DNA of 64,000 nt, taken from NCBI GenBank assembly GCA_965226795.1, contig CBDDDZ010000005.1:832001-896000 (forward strand), given 5' to 3'. How positions within the stretch are numbered: position 1 is the stretch's first letter; every line of letters begins with the position of its first letter. The notes beneath the pieces were generated by a model that saw only the letters and a program-made list of their open reading frames with translations, was not told the origin of the DNA and ran no database searches. A program made the translations under genes and the position numbers. Origin of the DNA: Candidatus Latescibacterota bacterium. GTDB taxonomy: Bacteria; Latescibacterota; UBA2968; GCA-2709665. This document shows positions 8,466 to 29,283 of this stretch, piece after piece.

Positions 8466-9830
8466 ATGGAATCGCGTAGAGACAATGGCAATGGCAGGAC
8501 CGAGCGCAACCCTCAGGTTTTGGGCAAGAATTTCATGTTTCCGCCCCACGTGATCGACGATATCCATATCAAGGCGAATCTGGGTCGGTATCGCATGCGC
8601 GGGATGGCGCTCTTCAAGCAGATTCCATCATGGGACGACCTCACGTTTCTGCCGGGCACGCTCACCCGGTTCGTGATCGAGGGATACCGTGAAAAATGCG
8701 AAACCAGGACGGTGCTGGGGCCTATGGCCAGGCGGCCGCTGGTACTGGATATTCCCGTCTACATTACGGGGATGAGCTTCGGCGCGTTGTCCTACGAGGC
8801 GAAGGTGGCGCTGGCGAGAGGGGCCACGATGGCGGGCACGGCGACCTGTTCCGGAGAAGGCGGAATGCTGCCCGACGAGCGCCGGTATTCGGAGAAGTGG
8901 CTGTACCAGTGCATTCAGTCCCGATACGGGTTCAATCCACACCATATGCGTCTTGCCGACGGCGTGGAGTTTTTTATCGGGCAGGGATGCAAGGTGGGGC
9001 TTGGCGGCCACCTGATGGGCCAGAAGGTGACCGACCAGGTGGCCGAGATGCGTTCGTTGCCGGCGGGGATCGATCAGCGTTCTCCCGCAAGGCACCCGGA
9101 CTGGCTGGGCCCCGATGATCTGGCTTTAAAGATTGAGGAGATCCGTGAGGCGACCAACTGGCAGATTCCCATTCAGTTGAAACTTGGCGCTGCGCGGGTG
9201 TACGACGACGTGCGGATGGCGGCAAAGACGGGGCCCGACAGTATATATATGGACGGGATGGAGGGGTCGACGGGAGCGGGGCCCCATCTGGCCACCGAGG
9301 AGACGGGCGTACCGGGCATCGCGGCCATCAGGCAGGCCAGAAAGGCACTGGACGACGTGGGTAAGACCGGGAAGATTACGCTCGTCTATGCCGGCGGGAT
9401 TCGCAACGGAGCCGACGTGGCCAAGGCGCTGGCGCTCGGAGCCGACGCGGTGGCGATCGGTACGGCGGCGATGGTGGCGCTGAATTGCAACAAGGACATC
9501 CCCGAAGCGGATTACGAAGGCACGGTTGGCGTACCGGCGGGATACTGCTATCACTGCCATACCGGACTGTGTCCCGTGGGCGTAGCCACCCAGGATCCGG
9601 TGCTGCGCAGCCGCCTGGACCCGGACGACGCGGCCGAACGGGTTTATAACTTCCTGCATACCCTGGCCATCGAATGCCAGATGTTCGCCAGGGCTTGCGG
9701 CAAGACCAATGTACATTCCCTGGAGCCGGAGGATCTTGCCGCGCTCACAATGGAGGCCTCCGCTATGGCGGAGGTGCCGTTGGCAGGCACCCGATATACG
9801 GTCGGGCATCCCGAGATGAACAGGTATTGA
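8466..9830 (+). CDS. FMN-binding glutamate synthase-family protein (N-methylglutamate synthase subunit C, GlxD/MgsC-like)
   Basis: 'GMSFGALS', 'SGEGG', 'GQGCKVGLGGHL', 'GGIRNGADVAKALALGAD' and Fe-S 'CYHCHTGLCPVGVATQD'; lies in a methylamine gene cluster. Confidence 0.88.
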   Translation: MESRRDNGNGRTERNPQVLGKNFMFPPHVIDDIHIKANLGRYRMRGMALFKQIPSWDDLTFLPGTLTRFVIEGYREKCETRTVLGPMARRPLVLDIPVYITGMSFGALSYEAKVALARGATMAGTATCSGEGGMLPDERRYSEKWLYQCIQSRYGFNPHHMRLADGVEFFIGQGCKVGLGGHLMGQKVTDQVAEMRSLPAGIDQRSPARHPDWLGPDDLALKIEEIREATNWQIPIQLKLGAARVYDDVRMAAKTGPDSIYMDGMEGSTGAGPHLATEETGVPGIAAIRQARKALDDVGKTGKITLVYAGGIRNGADVAKALALGADAVAIGTAAMVALNCNKDIPEADYEGTVGVPAGYCYHCHTGLCPVGVATQDPVLRSRLDPDDAAERVYNFLHTLAIECQMFARACGKTNVHSLEPEDLAALTMEASAMAEVPLAGTRYTVGHPEMNRY

Positions 9831-9926
9831 GTTCCGGAAAGGACCGCACGGGGATCTTCAGCACCGGTACAGGCCGCCCGCCAATCGGGTGGTTTCAGTG
9901 GTGGAATCCGCACACAGGAGAATCCG

Positions 9927-10343
9927 ATGGACGTAGCCAAAGACGTGAACTATTATCTGAAGTCCACGGGTCTGGACTCGGACCGAGAGAAAGAAATCGG
10001 ACAGCACATCGGATATCGGTACGATGTAAACCTACCGCCGGACTATGAGCTCCTGACCCCGTTTTTGAAGCGATACATCGAGTTGATGGGGTGGCGTGAC
10101 CTGAACTGGCTGGAAGATGTGCATATGGGATACGAAGACGGAAAGCCCGCGGTATTCGACCGGAATATCAATGGCTGGGTGCTGGTTCCGGAAGAAATGG
10201 CATTGCCCGACAACCAGCAGGAGCGTGACATGATTGCGCGGGAACTGCTCGTCAAGTTTCAAATGTCCGAGAAGCATCCGATTGTGGAACTCAGAGATGC
10301 ATACGGAATAACGCTTGAATGCGATGCCGCGTCCTCCGGGTAG
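9927..10343 (+). CDS. Hypothetical protein (138 aa)
   Basis: AGGAG RBS, globular-looking composition, co-oriented within the cluster. Confidence 0.75.
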   Translation: MDVAKDVNYYLKSTGLDSDREKEIGQHIGYRYDVNLPPDYELLTPFLKRYIELMGWRDLNWLEDVHMGYEDGKPAVFDRNINGWVLVPEEMALPDNQQERDMIARELLVKFQMSEKHPIVELRDAYGITLECDAASSG

Positions 10344-10554: not shown

Positions 10555-11949
10555 ATGAGCAAGACAAAGATGTGGGGCCCGGAGGCGTTCTGGGGAATGG
10601 ACTACGACTGGGACCCCCAATGGGTACTGACATCTGAGCAGGAGGCACTCCAGGAAAAACTGATCGAACTTTGCCGGACAACGCTGCGGGATAACGCGGT
10701 AGAGAGTGATCGCAACCTTGTGTTTCCGCGGGAAAACCTCGAGGCGCTGGCTTCGCTGGGCCTGCTCGGATTGAACGTACCACGGGAGTGGGGAGGGTTG
10801 GAAGAAAACCATACGTGTACGGCGATGGTGGTGGAGACGCTTGCGCGTTACGGGTGCGCCAGTACGGCGATGTGTTATACCATGCACATCGGCGCCGTGG
10901 CCGCGGCCATGTTCCGGGCGCACGACAACCCGACCCTTCAGGATCTCATGAAACGCCTCGACGAAGACGTGCTGGTAGGCACGTTATCCTATTCGGACCC
11001 GGAGACGGGTTCTCATTTCTGGTATCCGATATCTTCCGGGGCCGAGCGGGTGGCGGACGGCTGGAAGGTACGAAAGAAGGCGTCGTGGACGACGTCCGCG
11101 GGTTTTGCCGACTGGTACATCGTGCAGACGACGAGTCCCGATTTCGCGGGGGATTATTCGAATCTGTCCTGTTTTCTCGTGATGGCCGACGAGGTGAAAG
11201 CCGAGCCGTCCCTGTGGGATGGCCTGGGTCTGCGCGGGAACCAGTCCGGCACGCTTGAGGTTGACAACGTGACGATGCCGGAGGACAGGCTGGTCGGGCC
11301 CGTGGGAGACGGGGCGAATTCGAACGACGAAACGGTGGATCCGTTTTTCCTGTTGTGCTCATCGGCTTGCTGGAACGGCATTTCTTTGGGGATGATCGAT
11401 ATCGCCACGCGACACACGACCGCCAGGCGGCATGCGGACGTGGGTATGCGGGTGGCGGACTATCCGACGATCCAGGATTACGTGGGTGAGGCCGTGATCG
11501 ATACCAATACTTCCCGGTCCTTTGTCTACCTGATGGCCAGGGCGATGGACGATGTGACGAACCAGTGCGACTGGTCGATCCACGAGGACCTTTCCTGCAT
11601 GCCCCGGGCACAGGTGCTGCACTGGATGTGGCAGGTGAAGTTCACGGCGGCAAAGAACGTGACAAACGTCTCCGACAAGATGCTTCATGCCTGTGGCGGC
11701 ACTGGGTACAAACCCGATCTGGGGATCGAACGTTACCTGCGTGACGGTAAGGCCGGTTGGGTGATGGGCCCAACCAACGAGGTCCTCCGCCAGTTTGTGG
11801 GCAAGAGCGTGCTGTTGGGTTTTGACTCCCTGGATTATTGGAACCAGTCCGTGAACGAACGGTTATTGAGGAACGAACTCAGGAAGATGGACGGTAAGGA
11901 AAAGGAGGAACTCGCGCGGCAGCTTCTGGCCGAAGCCGATGAGGGGTGA
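10555..11949 (+). CDS. Acyl-CoA dehydrogenase-fold flavoprotein, probable flavin-dependent monooxygenase component
   Basis: 'LSYSDPETGS', 'KKASWTTS', 'WDGLGLRGNQS' and 'IERYLRDGKAGWVMGPTNEV'. The usual 'IYEGT' catalytic Glu is absent. Confidence 0.85.
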   Translation: MSKTKMWGPEAFWGMDYDWDPQWVLTSEQEALQEKLIELCRTTLRDNAVESDRNLVFPRENLEALASLGLLGLNVPREWGGLEENHTCTAMVVETLARYGCASTAMCYTMHIGAVAAAMFRAHDNPTLQDLMKRLDEDVLVGTLSYSDPETGSHFWYPISSGAERVADGWKVRKKASWTTSAGFADWYIVQTTSPDFAGDYSNLSCFLVMADEVKAEPSLWDGLGLRGNQSGTLEVDNVTMPEDRLVGPVGDGANSNDETVDPFFLLCSSACWNGISLGMIDIATRHTTARRHADVGMRVADYPTIQDYVGEAVIDTNTSRSFVYLMARAMDDVTNQCDWSIHEDLSCMPRAQVLHWMWQVKFTAAKNVTNVSDKMLHACGGTGYKPDLGIERYLRDGKAGWVMGPTNEVLRQFVGKSVLLGFDSLDYWNQSVNERLLRNELRKMDGKEKEELARQLLAEADEG

Positions 11950-14282
11950 TGCCTGCAAACGTCCAAATGACGGGAACCGGATTGCCGAGATGGACACCGG
12001 GCAGGGAGCGCTACCGGGTGCCGGGCGGCGGGGCGATCGCCCTGGCGCTGTCGCAAGGCGATCAACTGGCGGTTGTGGACGTGGAAGGGCGCCAGCGTTG
12101 CGAACTGGGCGTATTCGGCCCGGACGGGGGTGACGATCCGTCGAGGCTGGGCCTCCGGGCGGATGGCGCAATGGAAGGATTCGCGGCGGCGCTCAGGCGC
12201 GGGGACGAAAGCGCGCAGGCGGCTGATGCTGCCCTGCGGCGGAGGGGCGTCGACCTGTCGGACGCGCGGGCGGTGCAGGTTTTCGGTGGAGAGACGAAAG
12301 CGGGCACCGAAGCGTGTTTCGCCGTCGAGAGGGACGCCGTTTGCGTGATTGCGGCGCCCGGCGGTCCGATGAGGGCCGATGCCCAGGATCCCCCCACGGA
12401 CCTGGAAGTCGTGGTCAGGCGTTCCCGTGTAGAAATGTCCGAACGCCCCCCGATGCCCGCGCCCCTGGGTGACATGCGCCTGGATCGGGAGGTAGAAAGG
12501 GCGTCGGCAATCGCCTACGAGGTCAAGGCGGGAGAGTTCATCCAGGTGATCGACGTCGCTGGTCGCCAGTGTTCCGATTTTCTGGCATTCGACGCCAGGC
12601 AATTGCAGCGGGGTGTCGAGCGGGGGCTGGATGCGACCACGACGAGGACGCTCATGGGCGCGGCCTATCCCGGTCCGGGCCTGTTTTCGAAATTTTACGA
12701 CCAGGATATGCATCCGCTGGTCGAAGTCGTTCGGGATACGGTAGGGCGGCACGATACGTTTGCGCTTGCGTGCACCGCGAAATATTACGAGGATATGGGT
12801 TATCCCGGTCACGTCAACTGTACGGACAACTTCAACGTGGCATTGGATCCGTATACGATTCAGCGCCGGCGCGGCTGGCCCGCGGTGAATTTTTTCTACA
12901 ATACGAGAATCGATCAGAATAACGTCCTTTTCATGGATGAGCCATGGTCTCGTCCGGGCGATTACGTGCTGTTGAAAGCCTTAACGGACCTTGTCTGCCT
13001 GTCGTCCGCGTGCCCGGACGATATCGATCCGGCCAATGGCTGGGAGCCAACGGAGATTCAGGTTCGCGTTTACCCTGAACGGTACCGGTTTTCCAGAGGG
13101 ATTGCTCACCGGATGACGGCAGACGCCGAGCCGAGGTTGACGAGGGAGACGGCCTTCCACCAACGCACCTCTGCCTTGACTCGCCATTTTGAGGAATATC
13201 GCGGTTTTTGGCTGCCCGCCTGCTATACCGGGAAGGGCGTCGTTGAGGAATATTACGCCTGCCGCGAGGCGGCGGTGGTGATGGATCTGTCCGCGCTTCG
13301 CAAGTTCGAGGTTCTCGGGCCGGACGCCGAGGCGCTGTTGCAGCACACGCTCACACGCGACGTTCGCAGGCTTTCGGCGGGGCAGGTGACTTATTCCGCC
13401 ATGTGTTACGAAACAGGCGGGATGCTGGACGACGGCACGCTGTTTCGGTTGGGGTCCGAGAATTTCCGCTGGATCTGCGGCGACGATTACGGGGGTACGT
13501 GGTTGCGCGAGCAGGCGGGTCGCCTGGGGATGCGTGTATGGGTCAGAAATTCGACCGACCAACTCCACAATCTTGCCGTTCAGGGCCCCAGGAGCCGGGA
13601 AATTCTGCGCGAAATCATCTGGACGCCTCCGTCCCGCCCGTCACTGGACGAATTGGGCTGGTTCCGATTTACGGTGGGTCGAATTGGCGATGGAAGCGGA
13701 GCGGCGATTGTCGTATCCCGGACGGGCTACACGGGCGAACTGGGTTATGAGGTATGGTGCCATCCCCACGATGCGCCTGCGGTCTGGGATGCCATTTGGG
13801 AGGCGGGACAGCCGTATGGCCTGACACCGCTGGGATTGGAAGCCCTGGACATGCTGCGGATTGAGTCTGGTCTGGTCTTCGCGGGCTGTGAGTTTGACGA
13901 TCAGACGGACCCGTTTGAGGCGGGTATAGGCTTCACCGTTCCGCTCAAGCGCAAGAAAGACGATTTTATAGGCAAGGAGGCGCTGATTCGAAGGCGGTCG
14001 CATCCGCAACGTGTGTTGGTGGGGCTGGAGGTATCCGGAAACGAGCCAGCCGCCACCGGCGACGGCGTCTACGATGGGCGCGGCCGCGTGGGCGTGATTA
14101 CCAGCGGCAGCCGTTCGCCCATTTTGCGCAGGAATATCGCGCTATGCCGCATGGCGTTCGGGTACGCCGCGATCGGCGTGGAAGTGGAGGTGGGAAGGCT
14201 GGACGGTCATCAGAAGCGCATCCCCGCCCGGGTGGTGCGGTTTCCGTTTTACGATCCCGGGAAAACCCGGCCGCGTTCCTGA
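11949..14282 (+). CDS. tdm: Trimethylamine N-oxide demethylase (DUF1989 + GcvT/aminomethyltransferase domains)
   Basis: DUF1989 'GRQCSDF', 'GRHDTFALAC', 'GHVNCTDNF', 'SSACPDDID' metal-ligand motifs fused to GcvT 'SRTGYTGELGYE'. Start is ATG 11949 or GTG 11946. Confidence 0.88.
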   Translation: MPANVQMTGTGLPRWTPGRERYRVPGGGAIALALSQGDQLAVVDVEGRQRCELGVFGPDGGDDPSRLGLRADGAMEGFAAALRRGDESAQAADAALRRRGVDLSDARAVQVFGGETKAGTEACFAVERDAVCVIAAPGGPMRADAQDPPTDLEVVVRRSRVEMSERPPMPAPLGDMRLDREVERASAIAYEVKAGEFIQVIDVAGRQCSDFLAFDARQLQRGVERGLDATTTRTLMGAAYPGPGLFSKFYDQDMHPLVEVVRDTVGRHDTFALACTAKYYEDMGYPGHVNCTDNFNVALDPYTIQRRRGWPAVNFFYNTRIDQNNVLFMDEPWSRPGDYVLLKALTDLVCLSSACPDDIDPANGWEPTEIQVRVYPERYRFSRGIAHRMTADAEPRLTRETAFHQRTSALTRHFEEYRGFWLPACYTGKGVVEEYYACREAAVVMDLSALRKFEVLGPDAEALLQHTLTRDVRRLSAGQVTYSAMCYETGGMLDDGTLFRLGSENFRWICGDDYGGTWLREQAGRLGMRVWVRNSTDQLHNLAVQGPRSREILREIIWTPPSRPSLDELGWFRFTVGRIGDGSGAAIVVSRTGYTGELGYEVWCHPHDAPAVWDAIWEAGQPYGLTPLGLEALDMLRIESGLVFAGCEFDDQTDPFEAGIGFTVPLKRKKDDFIGKEALIRRRSHPQRVLVGLEVSGNEPAATGDGVYDGRGRVGVITSGSRSPILRRNIALCRMAFGYAAIGVEVEVGRLDGHQKRIPARVVRFPFYDPGKTRPRS

Positions 14283-14401
14283 TCACAAAGCAAAATCTGC
14301 TTCTCTTCACCGGTCATCACGGCGGCCTCGTTCAAGGAGCCCGGATGTCCGGCGGCGGACGGCGCCGTATGCGACACCGCTTTCGTTGAAAGGGTATTGG
14401 A

Positions 14402-14890
14402 ATGGCGTTCGACCCGATGGAGCAACGCCGCATTATGGGTTGTTTTGCAACGGGCGTAACCGTTTTGACGACGGTTGCAGGCGGCGAGTCGCGGGGGATG
14501 ACGGCCAATGCGGTGACCTCGCTGTCGCTGGATCCGCCGCTGGTCATGGTGGCGGTGGACAAGGACGCGCAGATGCACGGGTACTTGAGCGGAAGCCGGT
14601 ATTTTGCATTGAATATTTTAAGTGAGGACCAGGAAGCGCTCTCCACGCAATTTGCGCGCCCCGGCCCCAAAGATTTTTCGAACGTGCCGACAACGACGGT
14701 TCGTACCGGGATGCCGGTGTTCGTGGAGGCCCTCGGTTACGTGGAGTGTCGGCTCGTGGAGGTGTTGCGGGCTGGCGATCACGATATTTTCGTTGGAGAG
14801 ATTGTGGCGGGTGATGCGGTAGACGGTCGTCCACTGTTGTTTTACCGGGGAAAGTATCGGCGGATGATGGAAGAGCCGCCGCACCTCTGA
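14402..14890 (+). CDS. Flavin reductase (HpaC/DIM6/NTAB family)
   Basis: 'FATGVTV', 'GMTANAVTSLSLDPPLV', 'GDHDIFVGE' and 'PLLFYRG' motifs. Confidence 0.93.
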   Translation: MAFDPMEQRRIMGCFATGVTVLTTVAGGESRGMTANAVTSLSLDPPLVMVAVDKDAQMHGYLSGSRYFALNILSEDQEALSTQFARPGPKDFSNVPTTTVRTGMPVFVEALGYVECRLVEVLRAGDHDIFVGEIVAGDAVDGRPLLFYRGKYRRMMEEPPHL

Positions 14891-14944: not shown

Positions 14945-16339
14945 ATGGATAACGAGCTCAGTGCGTTGACCGTCATTTTTACCGAGTTCTATTACTGGGT
15001 ATGTATTGTACTCATGTTTCTGATCCACGTCGGCTTCTGTCTATACGAAGTGGGTGTGTCCAGACGGAAAAACATGATGCACACCCTGATGAAGAACGCG
15101 ATGCTGATTCCTCTGGTGACCGTCACGTTCTATTTTTTCGGGTGGTGGATCTATTTCGCGGTTCAAAACGGGCCCGGGATCACGGGTGGGCTTATCGAAG
15201 CCGCATGGGCTGCGCCCTGGAATGAGCTTATGGGATCACATATGGGAGGAAAGCCGCACGGAGGGGGGTTGACAGGGGCCGATACGGCGCTCTGGGCGCG
15301 GTTGAACGGCGTGTTCTGGGCGGCGTTTCTGTTGTTTGCATGGACGGCGGGATCGATTCTTTCGGGCGCGGTGATTGAACGCATCCGATCCAGCGCATTC
15401 TGGATTTTTGCGGTCTTGGTGGGATCGGTCACGTGGGTAGTCGACGCGGCGTGGGGATGGTCCGCAGACGGTTGGATGGTGCAGGTACTGGGGTATCACG
15501 ATGCGTATGCCTCCGGCGTGATCCACGCGATCTGCGGCGGGTCCGCGCTGGCGATTCTCTATCACCTTGGGCCGCGCATCGGCAGGTTCAAGCCGGACGG
15601 GGCACCTAGAAATTTCCCGCCGCACAACACCTGGCTGGTGATCATCGGACTGTTTCTGATTTATACGGGATTCTGGGGCTTCTACGCGGCTTGCAACGTG
15701 CCCATTATGGACATCGATCCCGCCGACGGCCGGTCGTTCTTTTCGGCCACAACGATTTACCTTACGCCGACGACGCTTAGCGCCATCACCTTTAACTTTT
15801 TGATGTCGCTCGCCGGTGGATTGATGATGGGGTATTTCGTGTCAAAAGGCGATCCTTACTGGACCTTCTCCGGCGGGTTGGCGGGTATCATCACGGCATC
15901 GGCCGGAAACGATCTGTACCATCCGATGCAGGCGCTTCTCATCGGAGCATTCGGCACGTTCTGCATCTACAAGTTGCACAACTGGGTCGAGCGCCGTTTC
16001 AGAATTGACGATGCCGTGGGCGCCGTGGCGGTACATGGATATGCCGGGGTAATCGGGGTGATTGTCGCAGGATTCGTACTTTGGGGGTATCCGGGTGCGA
16101 ATCCCGCTTACGCCCCGATTACGCCCTGGGGACAGACGCTTGGGGCCGTCATTATGTTTTTCGTGCTGGGTTTTCTGCCCTGTTACGTCGTGGGGGCAAT
16201 CCTCAAGAAGCTGGGCGTTCTCCGCATTCCAAAGCGAATTGAACTGGCGGGTATGGATCACCGGACGATCGAGAACGAAACAGCGGACGCAATCGAACTC
16301 GTTCAGGTGGAAATTGATGAAGCTCAAGGGGGAAACTAG
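14945..16339 (+). CDS. amt: Ammonium/methylammonium transporter (divergent Amt family)
   Basis: About 11 hydrophobic segments; 'SGAVIER', 'SGVIHAICG', 'LGPRIGRF' and 'IDDAVGAVAVHG'; twin His retained. Confidence 0.9.
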   Translation: MDNELSALTVIFTEFYYWVCIVLMFLIHVGFCLYEVGVSRRKNMMHTLMKNAMLIPLVTVTFYFFGWWIYFAVQNGPGITGGLIEAAWAAPWNELMGSHMGGKPHGGGLTGADTALWARLNGVFWAAFLLFAWTAGSILSGAVIERIRSSAFWIFAVLVGSVTWVVDAAWGWSADGWMVQVLGYHDAYASGVIHAICGGSALAILYHLGPRIGRFKPDGAPRNFPPHNTWLVIIGLFLIYTGFWGFYAACNVPIMDIDPADGRSFFSATTIYLTPTTLSAITFNFLMSLAGGLMMGYFVSKGDPYWTFSGGLAGIITASAGNDLYHPMQALLIGAFGTFCIYKLHNWVERRFRIDDAVGAVAVHGYAGVIGVIVAGFVLWGYPGANPAYAPITPWGQTLGAVIMFFVLGFLPCYVVGAILKKLGVLRIPKRIELAGMDHRTIENETADAIELVQVEIDEAQGGN

Positions 16340-16348
16340 AGAGGACCT

Positions 16349-18034
16349 ATGCGCGAACATGGCATATTGCCGGACATCGAAATCGCGAGACAAGCAAATT
16401 TGCTTCACGTTGGCGAGGTTGCGCAGATATTGGGCGTGCCCGAAGATCAACTGGAGGTCTACGGCAGGTACAAGGCCAAGGTTTCGATGGACTTCTACGA
16501 CAGCCTGGCCGGAAATCCCACCGGCAAGCTGGTGCTGGTCTCGGCAATCAATCCGACGCCTTCCGGTGAGGGCAAGACAACCACAACCGTGGGTCTGGGC
16601 GATGCGCTGAATCGGCTGGGAAAGCCAACGACCATCTGTCTCCGTGAGCCTTCTCTGGGCCCCTGTTTCGGCATGAAGGGAGGCGCTGCCGGCGGCGGGG
16701 CGTCTCAGGTTGCGCCGATGGAGGACATCAACCTGCACTTTACGGGCGATATCCATGCAATCGGTGTCGCCCACAATCTGCTGGCCGCTGCGATTGACAA
16801 TCACATTCATCACCGAAACAGGCTGGACATCGATCCCCGGCGCATCCTGTGGAAGCGTGTGATGGACATGAACGACCGGGCGCTGCGGGAAACCGTCATC
16901 GGTCTGGGTGGTACGGGGAATTCCTATCCCCGTGAATCGGGGTTTGAAATTACGGTCGCTTCCGAGGTAATGGCGATCCTTTGCCTGTCCGAATCGCTTG
17001 GGGAGCTGCGGGAGCGACTGGGTAAGATCATCGTGGCGTATACACGGGCAAACGAACCGCTCACGGCAGCCGATCTCAACGTGCGCGGGGCGATGGCCGT
17101 GCTGTTGAGAGACGCATTAAAGCCGAATCTGGTCCAGACACTCGAGAACAACCCGGCCATTGTTCACGGGGGCCCGTTCGCCAATATCGCGCACGGCTGC
17201 AATTCGATAATCGCGACCAAGCTGGCGATGCGCCTTTCCGAGTATACGGTGACTGAGGCCGGCTTCGGCGCGGATCTTGGCGCGGAGAAATTCCTGAATA
17301 TCAAGTGCCGTCAGGCCGGCATCCGGCCCGACGCGGTTGTGCTGGTGGCCACCGTCCGTGGGTTGAAATACCACGGCGGAATTCCGGTCAGGCAGCTCGA
17401 ACTGCCCAACATGCCTGCGATTGAAAAAGGGTTGGAGAATCTGAAGAAGCATATCGAGAATATCCGGCTTTTCGCCCTGCCCGTCGTCGTGGCCGTAAAC
17501 GTTTTCCTGTCTGACACGTCCGAAGAAGTAAGGTTAATACAGGAAAAATCCGCCTGCCTGGGAGTCCCGATTGTGCCATCGGAACACTGGGCGCAAGGGG
17601 GGGCCGGGGCCGAAGCGCTTGCCTGCGCGGTTGTTGAAGCAGCAGAGACGGCGACCTCCGATTTCACCCTTCTCTATCCTGATAATCGGCGGTTGTGGGA
17701 CAAAGCACGAATTGTAGCCCGGAAAATTTACGGTGCCAACGATCTTATAGGAGACAAGCGCCTGAGAGCCCGTTTCAAGAGGCTCGATGAACAGGGTTAC
17801 GGGCGCCTGCCGGTATGCATGGCCAAGACACAGTATTCGCTTTCGACCGACCCGAAACTGACGGGCAGACCCACGGGTTTCGACGTGCCCATCCGCGACG
17901 TGCGGGTGTCTGCAGGGGCCGGTTTCGTGGTGGTATTCACGGGTGACGTCATGACGATGCCGGGGCTTCCCCGAAAGCCTTCGGCCGAAGCGATTGATTT
18001 TGATGAAGCCGGACAGACCGTCGGTCTGTTCTGA
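16349..18034 (+). CDS. fhs: Formate--tetrahydrofolate ligase
   Basis: '[10 protein letters not shown]', '[10 protein letters not shown]', '[11 protein letters not shown]', '[14 protein letters not shown]' and 'VCMAKTQYS'. Confidence 0.97.
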
Positions 18035-18179: not shown

Positions 18180-18410
18180 ATGAGAACGGGTCTGATAGAC
18201 ACGTGGGTGGGGAATCCGGCTGACGTGGGGCCGATGTATCCCTTTGTGGGGTACGAGGTTCCTTTCTTCGTGGTTTGTCTTGTCCTTTGGATAGCGTACA
18301 CGGTCTGGCAGATCAGGCACGAGAGAGCGAATTATCAGGACGAGCTGGATCAGTTGGCCGAGGCGAGTCCTCTCGTAACGGCAATAAGAGGTAAGGGCAG
18401 GAATTGCTAA
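18180..18410 (+). CDS. Small single-pass membrane protein (76 aa)
   Basis: AAGGAGG RBS before ATG 18180; 'DVGPMYPFVGYEV' then one TM helix. Resembles small ORFs I recall beside amt in methylamine clusters (unverified). Confidence 0.75.
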   Translation: MRTGLIDTWVGNPADVGPMYPFVGYEVPFFVVCLVLWIAYTVWQIRHERANYQDELDQLAEASPLVTAIRGKGRNC

Positions 18411-18436
18411 TCTTGATTCTGGAGGGAGATCTGACG

Positions 18437-19771
18437 ATGACGCTGGCACAGGTTAAAGAGTTCGTATCCAGGAACGGAATAGATTTCTTTCTGTGTTCGT
18501 TCGTAGAGATGAGCGGGATGCCAAAGGCCAAGGTGGTGCCCGTCACCCACCTCGACGACATGGCCTCGGAGGGCGCGGGATTCGCGGGGTTCGCGGCGGG
18601 CCATATGGGGCAGGGTCCGCACGATTCAGATATGATGAATATACCGGATTTCAATTCCATGACCGTTTTGCCGTGGCGTAAGAATACGGCGTGGGTGGCG
18701 GGCAATATCCAGGTCGACGGAGAGCCTTTCGGGTACTGTCCACGGACGATTCTGCAGCGGCAACTTGCAAAGGCGGAGGCGAAGGGATATCGGCTGAATC
18801 TGGGCGTGGAAGCGGAGTTCATTCTCCTGAAAAAGGACGAACAGAACAACTATGTTCTGGCTGACCCTCTGGACACGTTGGAGAAGCCCTGCTATGATCT
18901 TCTAACCTTGCATCGCAACCTGGATGTGATGACCACGCTGATCGGGTATTTGCAGGAGCTGGGATGGGAACCCTATGCCAACGACCACGAAGACGCAAAT
19001 TGCCAGTTCGAAATCAACTGGTCCTATTCCGACGCGCTGACGACCGCCGATCGGCAGACGTTTTTCAGATGGATGGTGAAAGTGAACGCGGAGGGGCACG
19101 GATACCACGCGACTTTTATGCCGAAGCCGTTTTCGCATCTCACTGGAAGCGGAGCGCATTATCACCTGAGCCTGTGGGATCCTGAGAACAGGACCAATCT
19201 GTTCCTGGATGAGGCGGATGAAAACGGGCTGTCGAAGGAAGCATACTGGTTTCTGGCGGGCATCCTCAACCACGCAAAAGGGATCTCGGCGGTTTCCGCA
19301 CCGCTGGTCAACAGCTATAAGCGTCTTACGAGAGGCGCTCCTCGTTCAGGCGCGTCCTGGGCGCCAATCTGCATCACCTATGGCGGATCAAACCGGACGC
19401 AGATGATTCGAATCCCGGACGCGGGCCGTATCGAGAATCGGGCCATCGACGGGGCGGCCAATCCCTATCTGACGGCTGCGGCGATGCTGGCGGCCGGGCT
19501 CGATGGCATCGAAAACCGGATGGAACCGGGCGAACGCAACGAGGGCAATCTCTACGAGGTGCCGGAGAGCGAGTTGAAAGCACGGGGCATCGACCTGCTG
19601 CCGGGAACCCTGGCGGAGGCGGCCGATCACCTGGCGGCCGACGATGTGGTCCGGGAAGCGCTGGGTACGGAGTATGCTGACTATTATGTGCAGGTGAAGC
19701 GCGAAGAGTGGGCGGAGTACCATCTGCACGTCGACCAGTGGGAGCGTGAACGCTATCTGCCGGTCTACTAA
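18437..19771 (+). CDS. gmaS: Type III glutamine synthetase-like gamma-glutamylmethylamide synthetase (GlnT/GmaS)
   Basis: 'KAKVVP', 'GAGFAGFA', 'NDHEDANCQFEIN', 'ATFMPKPF' and 'SGASWAP...NRTQMIRIP'; methylamine gene context. Confidence 0.85.
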   Translation: MTLAQVKEFVSRNGIDFFLCSFVEMSGMPKAKVVPVTHLDDMASEGAGFAGFAAGHMGQGPHDSDMMNIPDFNSMTVLPWRKNTAWVAGNIQVDGEPFGYCPRTILQRQLAKAEAKGYRLNLGVEAEFILLKKDEQNNYVLADPLDTLEKPCYDLLTLHRNLDVMTTLIGYLQELGWEPYANDHEDANCQFEINWSYSDALTTADRQTFFRWMVKVNAEGHGYHATFMPKPFSHLTGSGAHYHLSLWDPENRTNLFLDEADENGLSKEAYWFLAGILNHAKGISAVSAPLVNSYKRLTRGAPRSGASWAPICITYGGSNRTQMIRIPDAGRIENRAIDGAANPYLTAAAMLAAGLDGIENRMEPGERNEGNLYEVPESELKARGIDLLPGTLAEAADHLAADDVVREALGTEYADYYVQVKREEWAEYHLHVDQWERERYLPVY

Positions 19772-25438: not shown

Positions 25439-27532
25439 TCAGCCGAGGTCGATAACGAGGTTTCCGTAGTTGTCTACATTCACCGTACACCCGGGGGGAA
25501 TGAGCGTTGTGGAGTCGATTTCCTCGACAATGGCGGGGCCCGGGAAGCGGTTGTTCGCCTTAAGGCGATACCGGTCATAAATCGCGGTTGTTGTCCGCCC
25601 GGCGGATCCGGGCATGTGTACATCGCGTTCAGCCTTCAGGGCGGCGTGCGCGGATGGTTTGCCCCTGGGAAGCTGCCGCCGGCTGGGGCGGGGAACGGCT
25701 CCCACGGCGGAGAGACGTACATTGACGATTTCCGTGGTTTCATCCCGGGTTGCGAAACCGTACTGGCGTCGGTGCGCGGTGAAAAAAGCGGCGTTCAGTT
25801 TCCGGGGAAGATTCTCCGACAACCGGCCGACGGGTACCCGAAGTTCGTAGGATTGGCCCGTATACCGCATATCCGCCTCCCGGATGAACCGGATATTGGA
25901 TTGGGAGACACCCTCGCTCAAAAGCAGGCGGGTCCCATTTTCTTCGAACTCACGGTAGATGCTCGAAAGGCCGGAAAGGTCCAGTTCGTCCGTCTTTGAA
26001 ATGTAGGTACGAACGTAGTCGTGACGCAGGTCGGTAACCAGCAGACCGAGCGCCGTGGTAACGCCCGGGCTGGGCGGTACAAGGACGGTGCGGATATGCA
26101 GCGCCTTTGCAAGCGCGGCGGCGTGGAGGGGGCCGGCGCCGCCGAAAGCGACCAGTACGAACGCGCGGGGGTCCACGCCTTTCTGGACCGAAACGAGTTG
26201 AAGGATGCCCGTCATGTTGGCGTTGGCGATTTCAATCAGGCCGGCGGCGGCTTCTTCGACTGGCATATTCAGCGGCCCGGCGATGCGCCGGTCGATCGCT
26301 TTTTTTGCGAGAGACTTGTGAAGGCGGAGTTCTCCGCCGAGGAAATAATCAGGATTGAGGCGGTCGAGAACTAGGTTTGCGTCCGTGAGCGTCGGTTCCG
26401 ACCCCCCTCCGCCGTAACAGGCGGGTCCCGGCGCCGCACCCGCGGATTGCGGGCCGACGGCAAGCGCCCCGCCGGGATCTACTTGGCCGATGCTTCCGCC
26501 GCCGGATCCGATTTCGACCAGATCGATGACCGGCGTTTTAACCGGATATCCCTGGCCCTTGTCCCGGGTGGTGGTTGCAACCGCCGCGTCGCCAACTTCG
26601 AATTCGGCGGCCAGGCGCGGCCGGCCGTTTTCAATGAGGGCTGCCTTCGCGGTCGTGCCGCCGATGTCCAGCGAAATAAGGTTTTCGAAACCGGCGAGTT
26701 GGCCGATGTACGTAGCGGCGATGACGCCCGCCGCCGGGCCGGATTCGATGAGTTGTACGGGCTGTTGTCTGGCGGTGCCGGAGGCGATGATCCCACCGCC
26801 CGAGGTCATCAGGAACAGGCCGGAGCCCGGGCTCACGTTCCCGAGCCGATCCTCCAGCCGTTCCACGTAGGCGCCCACAGCGGGAAGCAGGGCGGCGTTG
26901 ACGGCGGTCGTGCTGGCGCGGGTATATTCGCGGTACTCGGGACAGATGTCGGAGGAGATGCAGACGGGCAGATCGGGACAGGCTTCCCGGATGATCTCAG
27001 CGGCGCGGCGTTCGTGGGTCGTGTCTCTGTAGGCGTGCAGGAAGCAGACGAGAATCGCTTCCACGCGGTCTCTTGCCAATTTACGGGCGGCGCGGTAAAC
27101 GGCGCCTTCGTCCAACGGGACAAGCAGCCCGCCGTGGGCGTCGATGCGTTCGGGTACGCCAATGCAGAGGTGCCGCGGCACGAGCGGAGGGGGTTTGTCG
27201 TAATCGAGGTCGTAAAGGTTCGGACGGATCTGCCAGGCGATCTCAAAGAGATCGCTGAAACCCTGTGAGGCGATGAGACCTATCCGGGCGCCTTTCTGTT
27301 GAATGATCGTATTGGTTGCCACGGTGGTGCCGTGAACCACGAAACGCACCTGTGCGGACGTGAGATCCTGGTTGGCGAGGCCCCTGGTATACGCCTCCAT
27401 GAAAGCCCGTGAAGGATCGTCCGGGGTGGAGGAAACCTTAACGGGATGGAAGTCGCCGGTTTTTTCGTCCATCACCACGGCATCGGTGAACGTGCCGCCG
27501 ATGTCGATTCCGATGCGGTATGAATCATTCAT
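25439..27532 (-). CDS. Hydantoinase A/5-oxoprolinase family ATP-dependent subunit
   Basis: 'GIDIGGTFTD', 'HGTTVATN', 'ESGPAAG', 'DIGGTT' and 'FGGAGPLHA'. Confidence 0.95.
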   Translation of the reverse strand: MNDSYRIGIDIGGTFTDAVVMDEKTGDFHPVKVSSTPDDPSRAFMEAYTRGLANQDLTSAQVRFVVHGTTVATNTIIQQKGARIGLIASQGFSDLFEIAWQIRPNLYDLDYDKPPPLVPRHLCIGVPERIDAHGGLLVPLDEGAVYRAARKLARDRVEAILVCFLHAYRDTTHERRAAEIIREACPDLPVCISSDICPEYREYTRASTTAVNAALLPAVGAYVERLEDRLGNVSPGSGLFLMTSGGGIIASGTARQQPVQLIESGPAAGVIAATYIGQLAGFENLISLDIGGTTAKAALIENGRPRLAAEFEVGDAAVATTTRDKGQGYPVKTPVIDLVEIGSGGGSIGQVDPGGALAVGPQSAGAAPGPACYGGGGSEPTLTDANLVLDRLNPDYFLGGELRLHKSLAKKAIDRRIAGPLNMPVEEAAAGLIEIANANMTGILQLVSVQKGVDPRAFVLVAFGGAGPLHAAALAKALHIRTVLVPPSPGVTTALGLLVTDLRHDYVRTYISKTDELDLSGLSSIYREFEENGTRLLLSEGVSQSNIRFIREADMRYTGQSYELRVPVGRLSENLPRKLNAAFFTAHRRQYGFATRDETTEIVNVRLSAVGAVPRPSRRQLPRGKPSAHAALKAERDVHMPGSAGRTTTAIYDRYRLKANNRFPGPAIVEEIDSTTLIPPGCTVNVDNYGNLVIDLG

Positions 27533-29283
27533 CCAGTCGCACTCCGTTCAAGGCGCTGACGCAGAACCTTCGTCGCCTCGGGATCGACGGTCCAGGTCCT
27601 GGCATTGTAGACGACACCGTAGGTTTTGCGGGCGGCTCGAGGCGTTATTTTCTTGTCCCGGACGTCCCGGACGACGGCATCCGGGTCGCGTTCGTGTGGG
27701 TGGCCGTGGCCCCCGCCGCCCGGCGTCTGCACGCTCACGCGGCCGCCCTTGGGCACTATGATGCTCACTTTTGAGGGCAGTCTCTCGGCCTTGCCTTCCG
27801 GATCTCGGATGAACCGTGCGGGCCGGCCGTTGCCACCGCCCTCGAGCCCCCATGGAGGAAACCGCGTGCCATCCGAGAGGACGGTGAATGTGGTATCGCA
27901 GTCGGGAAATTCGAAATCCCTTCTGATGCCAAGGCCGCCGCGAAACCGGCCTGAGCCGCCGCTGTTCGTGATGAGGCCGTAGCGGGCAAAGCGGATGGGA
28001 TAATTGATTTCCACCTCTTCGATCGGCGCGTTTTCGGTGTTGTGGATGGTCGTCTGGATGGCGTCGGGGCCGTCTTTGGCGGGGCGGGCGCCGTTGCCGC
28101 CGCCAACGGTCTCCATGTAGCAGTAAAACGCTTTTTTTCTCGGGTCGATGCCGGCAAAACCCAGGTTGCAGATAATGCCTTTGCCGCAGGCGGGAATCCT
28201 GTCCGGCAACACGTTGTGCAGAGCGGTGAGGGTAAGTTCCGCCGTGAGTTGCGCCAATTCCCACGCGCCTACAACGGCTGCGGGCCACATTGCGGTGAGC
28301 ACGGTATTGTCCGGTCCGATGACTTCCAGGCATCGATAGAGGCCGTCGTTGACCAGGATGCGCGGATCGATCAGGCTCTTGATGACCACCGCAATGGCGG
28401 CCAGGGCATTGGAGCGGGTGGCGTTCAGCGGGCCGGTCTGCTGCGGCGCGGAGCCCGTGACGTCCAGTTTGGCGCTTCCATCGGCGATATGGACGGCAAC
28501 GGCGATTTTGACCGGTTTGTCGTCGAATCCGTTGTTGTCGCGAAAACCTTCGGCCTTATACACACCGGTCGGCAATGCGGCGATCTCGCGCCGCGCCCAT
28601 CGCTCCGTATAGTCGAGCAGTTCGTCGAAGAAGGCTTCGACCTGGCCGATCTCGTAACGATCGATCAGGTCGGCGATGCGTCTTGCCCCAACAAGGTTCG
28701 CTCCCATCTGCGCGCGCAGATCGCCGCCGGTCTCGTGGGGCGCGCGCACGTTTTCCAGTATCAGACCCAGGACGTTGTTGTCGATTTCCCCCCGCCGCAT
28801 GATTTTCGTGGGAGGTATGATGATGCCTTCCTGGTAGATTTCGCGGTTTACTCCCAGGCTGCACGGCGTGCTGCCCCCCACGTCGACGTGGTGAGCCATG
28901 TTGGCGAGGTACCCGAGACGGGTCGTTCCGGCATAGACCGGCGCGATCAGCGCGATATCGTTGAGGTGGCTGCTTCCGCGATGGGGATCGTTCAGGATGA
29001 GGCCATCGCCGGGCGCGAGATTCTCTGCGCCGTATTCCCGGAGGGCATTCGGGATTGCGGTCTTCATGGATGAGAGGTGCGGCGGCTGGGAGAAGGATTG
29101 CGCCACCACCCGGAATGCCGCGTCGAAGAAGGCGCAGGAAAAATCAGCCCGTGTTTTGATATTGGTGGAGTACGCGGTGCGGCGTATGGTATACGCCATC
29201 TCTTCGGTGGCGTTGAGCAGCGCGTTCTTCATCACTTCAAAGGTGATGGGGTCCATGCTGAGGTGGGACGATTGATCGGGCAT
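27529..29283 (-). CDS. Hydantoinase B/5-oxoprolinase family subunit
   Basis: 'DPITFEV', 'NDPHRGSSHLND', 'HHVDVGG', 'GRFRGGLG' and 'TPGGGGHG'; 4-nt overlap with the partner gene. Confidence 0.95.
   Translation of the reverse strand: MPDQSSHLSMDPITFEVMKNALLNATEEMAYTIRRTAYSTNIKTRADFSCAFFDAAFRVVAQSFSQPPHLSSMKTAIPNALREYGAENLAPGDGLILNDPHRGSSHLNDIALIAPVYAGTTRLGYLANMAHHVDVGGSTPCSLGVNREIYQEGIIIPPTKIMRRGEIDNNVLGLILENVRAPHETGGDLRAQMGANLVGARRIADLIDRYEIGQVEAFFDELLDYTERWARREIAALPTGVYKAEGFRDNNGFDDKPVKIAVAVHIADGSAKLDVTGSAPQQTGPLNATRSNALAAIAVVIKSLIDPRILVNDGLYRCLEVIGPDNTVLTAMWPAAVVGAWELAQLTAELTLTALHNVLPDRIPACGKGIICNLGFAGIDPRKKAFYCYMETVGGGNGARPAKDGPDAIQTTIHNTENAPIEEVEINYPIRFARYGLITNSGGSGRFRGGLGIRRDFEFPDCDTTFTVLSDGTRFPPWGLEGGGNGRPARFIRDPEGKAERLPSKVSIIVPKGGRVSVQTPGGGGHGHPHERDPDAVVRDVRDKKITPRAARKTYGVVYNARTWTVDPEATKVLRQRLERSATG

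Follow-up and report, generated by a model that had tools for sequence, protein, structure and literature searches.

The monooxygenase Tmm (NF058570), a one-component class B flavin-containing monooxygenase (FMO) encoded next to the demethylase gene tdm, converts trimethylamine (TMA) with O2 and NAD(P)H to trimethylamine N-oxide (TMAO) via a flavin hydroperoxide, and tmm is the marker by which aerobic TMA oxidisers are counted (PMC5520151 and PMC13390433, in their available text). In Methylocella and Ruegeria the cluster runs tmm-tdm-tmoP-dmmDABC and is joined by gmaS, mgs and mgd. Group D flavin monooxygenases combine the acyl-CoA dehydrogenase (ACAD) fold with a separate reductase, and N-hydroxylation and other heteroatom oxidations are included among their reactions (PMC6165268, in the part available). 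Here we analyze a 64,000-nucleotide stretch of a Candidatus Latescibacterota genome (contig CBDDDZ010000005.1, positions 832,001 to 896,000; hereafter the window), in which genes for an ACAD-fold flavoprotein and a flavin reductase flank tdm. The genome shares with the Methylocella and Ruegeria cluster a genuine Tdm, a GmaS-type ligase and Mgs- and Mgd-like genes, but it has neither tmm nor dmm; instead, the ACAD-fold gene and the reductase gene surround tdm, and a sister Mgs-like module stands with a 138-residue orphan protein.

From the gene context, and by analogy with group D enzymes, we consider it probable that the ACAD-fold protein and the reductase form an undescribed two-component flavin monooxygenase with the putative activity of making TMAO from TMA. 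We infer this Tmm-like role because the ACAD gene lies beside tdm, mostly in genomes without tmm. Such a system would resemble Tmm in its predicted reaction and in its position by tdm, while the folds are unrelated and Tmm has a single component. In the open papers no description of an ACAD-reductase-tdm system was found, subscription papers and supplements being outside the scope of the search, and the available text of PMC13390433 mentions neither acyl-CoA nor flavin reductase.

Linkage of the ACAD-fold gene to tdm

The gene for the ACAD-fold flavoprotein (464 amino acids), the candidate oxygenase subunit, is located at 10555..11949 on the forward strand, as are all genes described below unless stated otherwise. 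Its stop codon overlaps the start of tdm as TGATG (11947..11951, +), just as the first-pass annotation had read it, and together with GAGGGG just 5' of it this makes translational coupling of the two genes likely; the overlap is retained in 10 of the 12 related loci checked. The tdm frame (11949..14282; start at 11946/11949, 778 residues from the GTG) encodes a TMAO demethylase in which DUF1989 is fused to GCV_T and GCV_T_C, and which scores 1252 bits against NF053776, above the cut-off of 1100. The flavin reductase gene that had been noticed 3' of tdm is indeed present at 14402..14890, and its 162-residue product, of the HpaC/PheA2 type (PF01613, 149 bits), is the candidate reductase subunit.

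From 244 stretches of the genome collection we kept 80 loci whose proteins are 70-98% identical to the ACAD-fold protein; genes at ≥70% identity are called core genes and those at 53-62% paralogues. The 80 loci are recorded as Latescibacterota, Acidobacteria, Alpha-, Beta- and Gammaproteobacteria and cyanobacteria, the closest relatives being recorded as Candidatus Latescibacterota. Within 10 kb of the ACAD gene, tdm was found in 59 of the 80 loci and the reductase gene in 57 (43 and 40, respectively, of the 47 loci with full flanks), dmmC in 16 and tmm in 2. Because tdm lies so close in 43 of the 47 full-flank loci, the linkage is not by chance, and the co-location of homologues with tdm, proposed at first pass as a check, is borne out. 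Among 80 shorter metagenome loci the counts were 35 for tdm, 28 for the reductase, 2 for dmmC and 0 for tmm. At the level of genomes, where 50 of the 80 loci could be counted, the 49 carriers hold tdm in 48 cases, tmm in 6 and PF11927, the DmmC family, in 12.

The cluster of Xanthobacter flavus (G038) contains, in order, a dmmD-like gene, the ACAD gene, the reductase gene, tdm, a TMAO permease gene and dmmA, B and C, and this genome has no tmm. It does have a true TMA dehydrogenase outside the tdm cluster (L144:4110-6317, 1269 bits to 1DJN). G040 has a TMA dehydrogenase match equal to it in size and score, and neither tmm nor TMA dehydrogenase was found in G039 and G041. Of these, G039 is Xanthobacter tagetidis, which does have dmm. 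In cyanobacterial-type loci (L047, L073, L080, L206, L207, L210 and L219) the ACAD gene is accompanied by PhyH, Amt and gmaS genes and by a shorter Tdm of about 620 residues, and the reductase gene is unlinked; other PF01613 genes occur in the cyanobacteria. An unnamed protein of about 200 residues (L035:15409-16005 and relatives), without a Pfam or strong NCBIfam match, is encoded between the reductase and the 138-residue orphan in 15 of the 80 loci, and a custom profile did not find it in the genome of the window.

Distribution against tmm and dmm

The source genome is 95.9% complete, and profile searches of it found no FMO (PF00743), no Tmm (NF058570) and no TMA dehydrogenase. DmmC (PF11927) and DmmA were not matched either, and the same PF11927 search matched none of the control genomes, while in the other genome sets this profile matched 12, 56 and 6 genomes. 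Mgs- and Mgd-like genes are present elsewhere on contig C5.

For two controls, genomes were chosen by tdm and not by the ACAD gene, and the counts from both are inflated by kinship. From the order of Dongia (G025) all 68 genomes were taken, 60 of them with tdm; the order of Xanthobacter gave 401 genomes, 84 with tdm, of which 80 were followed. Among the tdm genomes of the Dongia order, tmm occurs in 3 of the 31 with the core gene versus 24 of the 29 without it (Fisher p 1e-8, kinship ignored), or in 7 of 36 versus 20 of 24 (p 1e-6) when the 53-62% paralogues are counted as carriers, and the result is unchanged when G489 is omitted. The Xanthobacter order shows tmm in 7 of 11 carriers versus 63 of 69 non-carriers (p 0.027), and in these seven carriers tmm is on a different contig from tdm or at least 0.9 Mb away from it. 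A tree of 84 Tdm proteins implies 10 changes of the ACAD state, and among 9 independent pairs tmm differs in the predicted direction in 6.2 and in the opposite direction in 1.0. Some loci of the Dongia order have reductase-ACAD where their relatives have reductase-tmm, that is, the same slot, and in a fast tree the reductases from loci without the ACAD gene fall inside the ACAD-linked ones at three places. Three genomes (G029, G477 and G501) combine the ACAD gene with both tmm and tdm and have no dmm. This pattern fits repeated replacement in place, the three genomes being states that hold both genes. The near-complementary distribution with tmm and the shared cluster slot, together with the missing catalytic Glu described below, thus support from gene context the replacement of Tmm that the first-pass annotation had put forward.

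The same annotation had named Dmm as the other enzyme that might be replaced. DmmABC, like the proposed enzyme, uses O2 and NAD(P)H to oxidise a methylated amine, but it is an unrelated haem, flavin mononucleotide (FMN) and Fe-S enzyme (PMC5520151, available part). If the pair replaced it, the two proteins would oxidise dimethylamine by N-hydroxylation followed by loss of formaldehyde, and TMAO would be taken up rather than made, which would suit the TMAO permease in the Xanthobacter cluster. The chief argument for this alternative, which we regard as unlikely, is that most carriers have no dmm: PF11927 is missing from 37 of the 49 carrier genomes and from the source genome, dmm is found in 0 of 31 tdm genomes with the core gene versus 6 of 29 without it in the Dongia order (p 0.009), and G029, G477 and G501 lack it although they have tmm and tdm. 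However, dmmC lies within 16 of the 80 ACAD loci, and in the Xanthobacter order dmm is present in 9 of 11 carriers versus 47 of 69 non-carriers (p 0.49). On the Tdm tree dmm differs in the predicted direction in 1.7 of the 9 independent pairs and does not differ in 7.2, with paralogue-type PF11927 matches scored as dmm-negative. Moreover, 19 non-carriers of the Dongia order have tmm and tdm without dmm, and therefore the absence of dmm needs no ACAD gene; genomes with tdm and tmm but no dmm have been described already (PMC5520151, available part).

The absence of dmm follows instead the 138-residue orphan (9927..10343), which has no Pfam, NCBIfam or Atlas match and whose gene comes after an MgsC-like gene in related loci. 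In the Xanthobacter order the orphan is present in 25 of the 80 tdm genomes, 18 of which (of 24 such tdm genomes) have no PF11927 match and 7 of which have broken or paralogue-type matches only (p 9e-8 on the raw count). It occurs in 0 of 49 genomes with a typical dmmC versus 25 of 31 without one; outside this set, orphan and dmm (PF11927) are both present in G031. From this co-occurrence the Dmm slot seems to be filled by the Mgs-like module of the orphan and not by the ACAD gene, and the orphan may serve as a marker of this candidate dimethylamine route. In the window the module is represented by the MgsC-like FMN subunit of the glutamate-synthase family (8466..9830; PF01645, assigned also from neighbourhoods). 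The whole sister GmaS/MgsABC/DAO-like module with the orphan is split over three sites, at 8466-10343 of the window and at about 2144300-2147600 and about 1527500-1528900 of G000:C5. Its GmaS-like gene (L141:8131-9623, G000:C5:2146127-2147622) reads as two overlapping frames of 336 and 193 residues where relatives have one open reading frame (ORF) of about 490 residues, a frameshift or an assembly error.

Fold and residues of the ACAD-fold protein

The N-terminal, middle and C-terminal domains of the ACAD fold were found in the 464-residue protein by Pfam, in the predicted model and by structure search. In a gap-free alignment Gly405 stands at the position of the catalytic Glu of medium-chain ACADs (MCAD), with RDGKAGWVMGPTNE against RDAKITQIYEGTNQ of solved ACADs; GWVMGP[TS]NE is present in 86 of 86 core homologues and none has Glu at the YEGT position, so the loss of the YEGT base noted at first pass holds for all of these. 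Residues 402-407 of the predicted model have a predicted local distance difference test score (pLDDT) below 50. In isovaleryl-CoA and long-chain ACADs (IVD/LCAD) the alternative catalytic Glu stands immediately before the Arg of L-D-x-x-R. Sequence alignment places V261-D262-P263-F264-F265 against the LDHTR/LNHTR of ACADs, so that Phe264 and Phe265 occupy the respective sites of LCAD-type Glu and conserved Arg; the alternative Glu that the first-pass annotation had thought worth seeking does not appear there, and the invariant E259 is five residues away. As judged by alignment, then, the catalytic Glu is missing at both standard positions. Further invariant residues are the aromatics H154-F155-W156-Y157, F265 and W402 and the acids D258, E259 and D262.

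The motif WD-x-L-G-x-R is common to the ACAD-fold protein, 5GJ7/5Z8T and 8CDA, versus KLG in ordinary ACADs, and the alignment with 5GJ7/5Z8T is gap-free across residues 220-329. By a small margin, 5Z8T, a 'flavin-containing monooxygenase', was also ranked top by Foldseek. Outside residues 13-426 the model is unmatched, leaving extra N- and C-terminal segments.

The protein scores under every NCBIfam cut-off. Its best NCBIfam match was Rv1679/FadE16 (NF049984), with 220 bits where the cut-off is 600, and DszC, SfnB, HsaA and C2-HpaH gave 53/850, 75/431, 62/450 and 49/650 bits, respectively. Neither the FMO fold nor NF058570 or PF00743 was matched, which sets Tmm aside, and the PF11927 haem subunit, DmmA and the reductase of DmmABC were likewise not recognised. 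The ACAD-fold protein is therefore outside Tmm, Dmm, the true ACADs and every named group D family tested. It is like the group D enzymes (DszC, SfnB, HsaA, C2-HpaH, KijD3, ORF36, DnmZ and 5Z8T/5GJ7) in having the ACAD fold without the dehydrogenase base, a nearby separate HpaC-type flavin reductase, here adjacent though not an exclusive partner, and WD-x-x-G-x-R. On the other hand, it stands far under the cut-offs of the named families (43-75 bits versus 430-850) at 19-24% identity, it has the extra terminal segments, a small tertiary amine is predicted as its substrate, and GWVMGPTNE contains no His at the group D C-terminal His position. This His stabilises the hydroperoxyflavin in DszC and C2-HpaH, and the amino-sugar N-oxygenases are not known to have it. 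By analogy, group D catalysis of the Tmm reaction is the most likely mode of action of the ACAD-fold protein.

That it is an ordinary ACAD placed in the cluster by chance is highly improbable. Database names for the family are only 'acyl-CoA dehydrogenase' or 'AidB-like', and the Pfam domains and the fold are those of ACADs, but the MCAD-site Glu is absent, the LCAD-type Glu and Arg sites hold Phe, all NCBIfam ACAD cut-offs are missed and tdm is linked in the 43 of 47 loci mentioned above. Scanning 23 + 23 ORFs of the window with NCBIfam and Pfam revealed no electron-transfer flavoprotein (ETF) or CoA-pathway genes, in agreement with the first reading of the sequence, and PF01012 (ETF) is unmatched genome-wide, where the control matched in 10 of 14. 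Little weight attaches to the missing ETF, since this genome also has two FadE-type ACADs, likewise without ETF. These two (G000:C4:790148 and C4:930520) have near-equal scores and one is at a contig end, which duplication or assembly overlap may explain.

Several observations weigh against a TMA monooxygenase. The protein is nearest in fold and sequence to ordinary ACADs, and a second structure comparison gave only dehydrogenase-type ACADs among the 50 matches listed. In sequence, KijD3 and DnmZ match only weakly and rank under about 45 ordinary ACADs; no particular kinship with them was seen, and therefore the fold alone is no proof of an oxygenase. Ten of 42 carriers also have tmm, and the sign test for tmm on the independent pairs is not significant (median p 0.125). 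The reductase gene occurs without the oxygenase gene, for example by tdm in 9 loci without the core gene, and is present in 8 of the 21 core-ACAD-negative loci of the Dongia order; the exchange of reductase-ACAD and reductase-tmm is also compatible with a second function of the reductase.

Some of these points would suit a flavin-bound amine dehydrogenase or oxidase with another base (e.g., E259, E409, H111 or H154), the reductase serving Tdm, for instance as an iron or flavin reductant, and we think this very unlikely. Besides the closeness to dehydrogenase-type ACADs and the 9 loci with tdm and reductase but no core gene, it could appeal to the invariant acids and histidines that remain and to the resemblance of the reductase to FerA, which is under the cut-off. 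But of 20 tdm loci of the Xanthobacter order that have no ACAD gene, 19 also have no reductase gene; the latter is kept adjacent to paralogues at 53-55% without tdm (4 loci), and a dehydrogenase would bypass TMAO, leaving the tie to tdm unexplained. The best PDB sequence match of the reductase is phenol hydroxylase component B, and of the two PF01613 matches in its own genome the tdm-linked one is the stronger (149 versus 62 bits). The reductase is a likely, though not exclusive, partner of the ACAD-fold protein.

The pair could also be a two-component N- or S-oxygenase that acts mainly on a compound other than free TMA, namely another tertiary amine or dimethylsulfide, or on TMA and dimethylamine alike at low selectivity. 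Paralogues at 53-62% lie in other amine clusters with dimethylglycine dehydrogenase (DMGDH)-like and Rieske genes, the ten carriers with tmm suggest that the functional overlap may be incomplete, and the heteroatom oxidations of group D (PMC6165268, available part) accord with such a breadth. The core family, however, follows tdm (48 of 49), its distribution is complementary to that of tmm, and no recurring genes for a different substrate were found in the 80 + 80 loci, which makes this explanation quite unlikely. The paralogues themselves (L101-L109) have altered pocket motifs; the neighbours of one group are a reductase gene and a DMGDH-like gene, those of another are TetR and a Rieske oxygenase, and these paralogues likely act on other amine substrates.

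The proposed route and its significance

In the TMA monooxygenase that we propose, following group D chemistry, the reductase would reduce flavin adenine dinucleotide (FAD) or FMN with NAD(P)H, and the reduced flavin would bind the ACAD-fold protein and react with O2 to C4a-hydroperoxyflavin. The distal oxygen would then pass to the amine nitrogen, converting TMA to TMAO. A small pocket for the methylammonium ion may be lined by H154-F155-W156-Y157, F265, W402, D258, E259 and D262, as far as the alignment suggests. TMAO would be handed to the adjacent Tdm, which converts TMAO to dimethylamine and a one-carbon (C1) unit. The neighbouring products would deal with what follows: the formate-tetrahydrofolate ligase Fhs (16349..18034; NF010030, over the cut-off) with the C1 unit, and the GmaS-type type III glutamate-ammonia ligase (18404..19771; TIGR03105, 586 bits, cut-off 470) with methylamine. 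A different system probably carries out the dimethylamine step in this genome, and the module of the orphan is the candidate for it.

Between the reductase gene and fhs lies the gene for an Amt-family channel (14945..16339), which is below the Amt equivalog cut-offs and might import methylamine; such a channel accompanies tdm clusters in 18 of the 80 loci, and two further Amt matches are present elsewhere in the genome. Farther away, a hydantoinase/oxoprolinase A + B pair (25439-29283, reverse strand) matches caprolactamase subunits best, under the cut-off.

A wider proposal, that a second, unrelated TMA monooxygenase alternates with tmm next to tdm in several phyla and that the sister N-methylglutamate-like module of the orphan replaces Dmm, which would give a complete pathway leading from TMA to ammonium without either known oxygenase, is a tentative one that we hold to be possible, with somewhat less than an even chance. 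The claim for the oxygenase is directly testable, as only two genes, both small, are involved and Xanthobacter strains are in culture. If true, tertiary-amine N-oxidation would join the known reactions of ACAD-fold monooxygenases. TMA, TMAO and dimethylamine are relevant to nitrogen cycling and aerosols, and tmm-based counts would overlook the carriers that are recorded as Latescibacterota, Acidobacteria, cyanobacteria and Xanthobacter, as well as roughly half of the tdm genomes of the Dongia order, where 28 of 60 have the gene without tmm.

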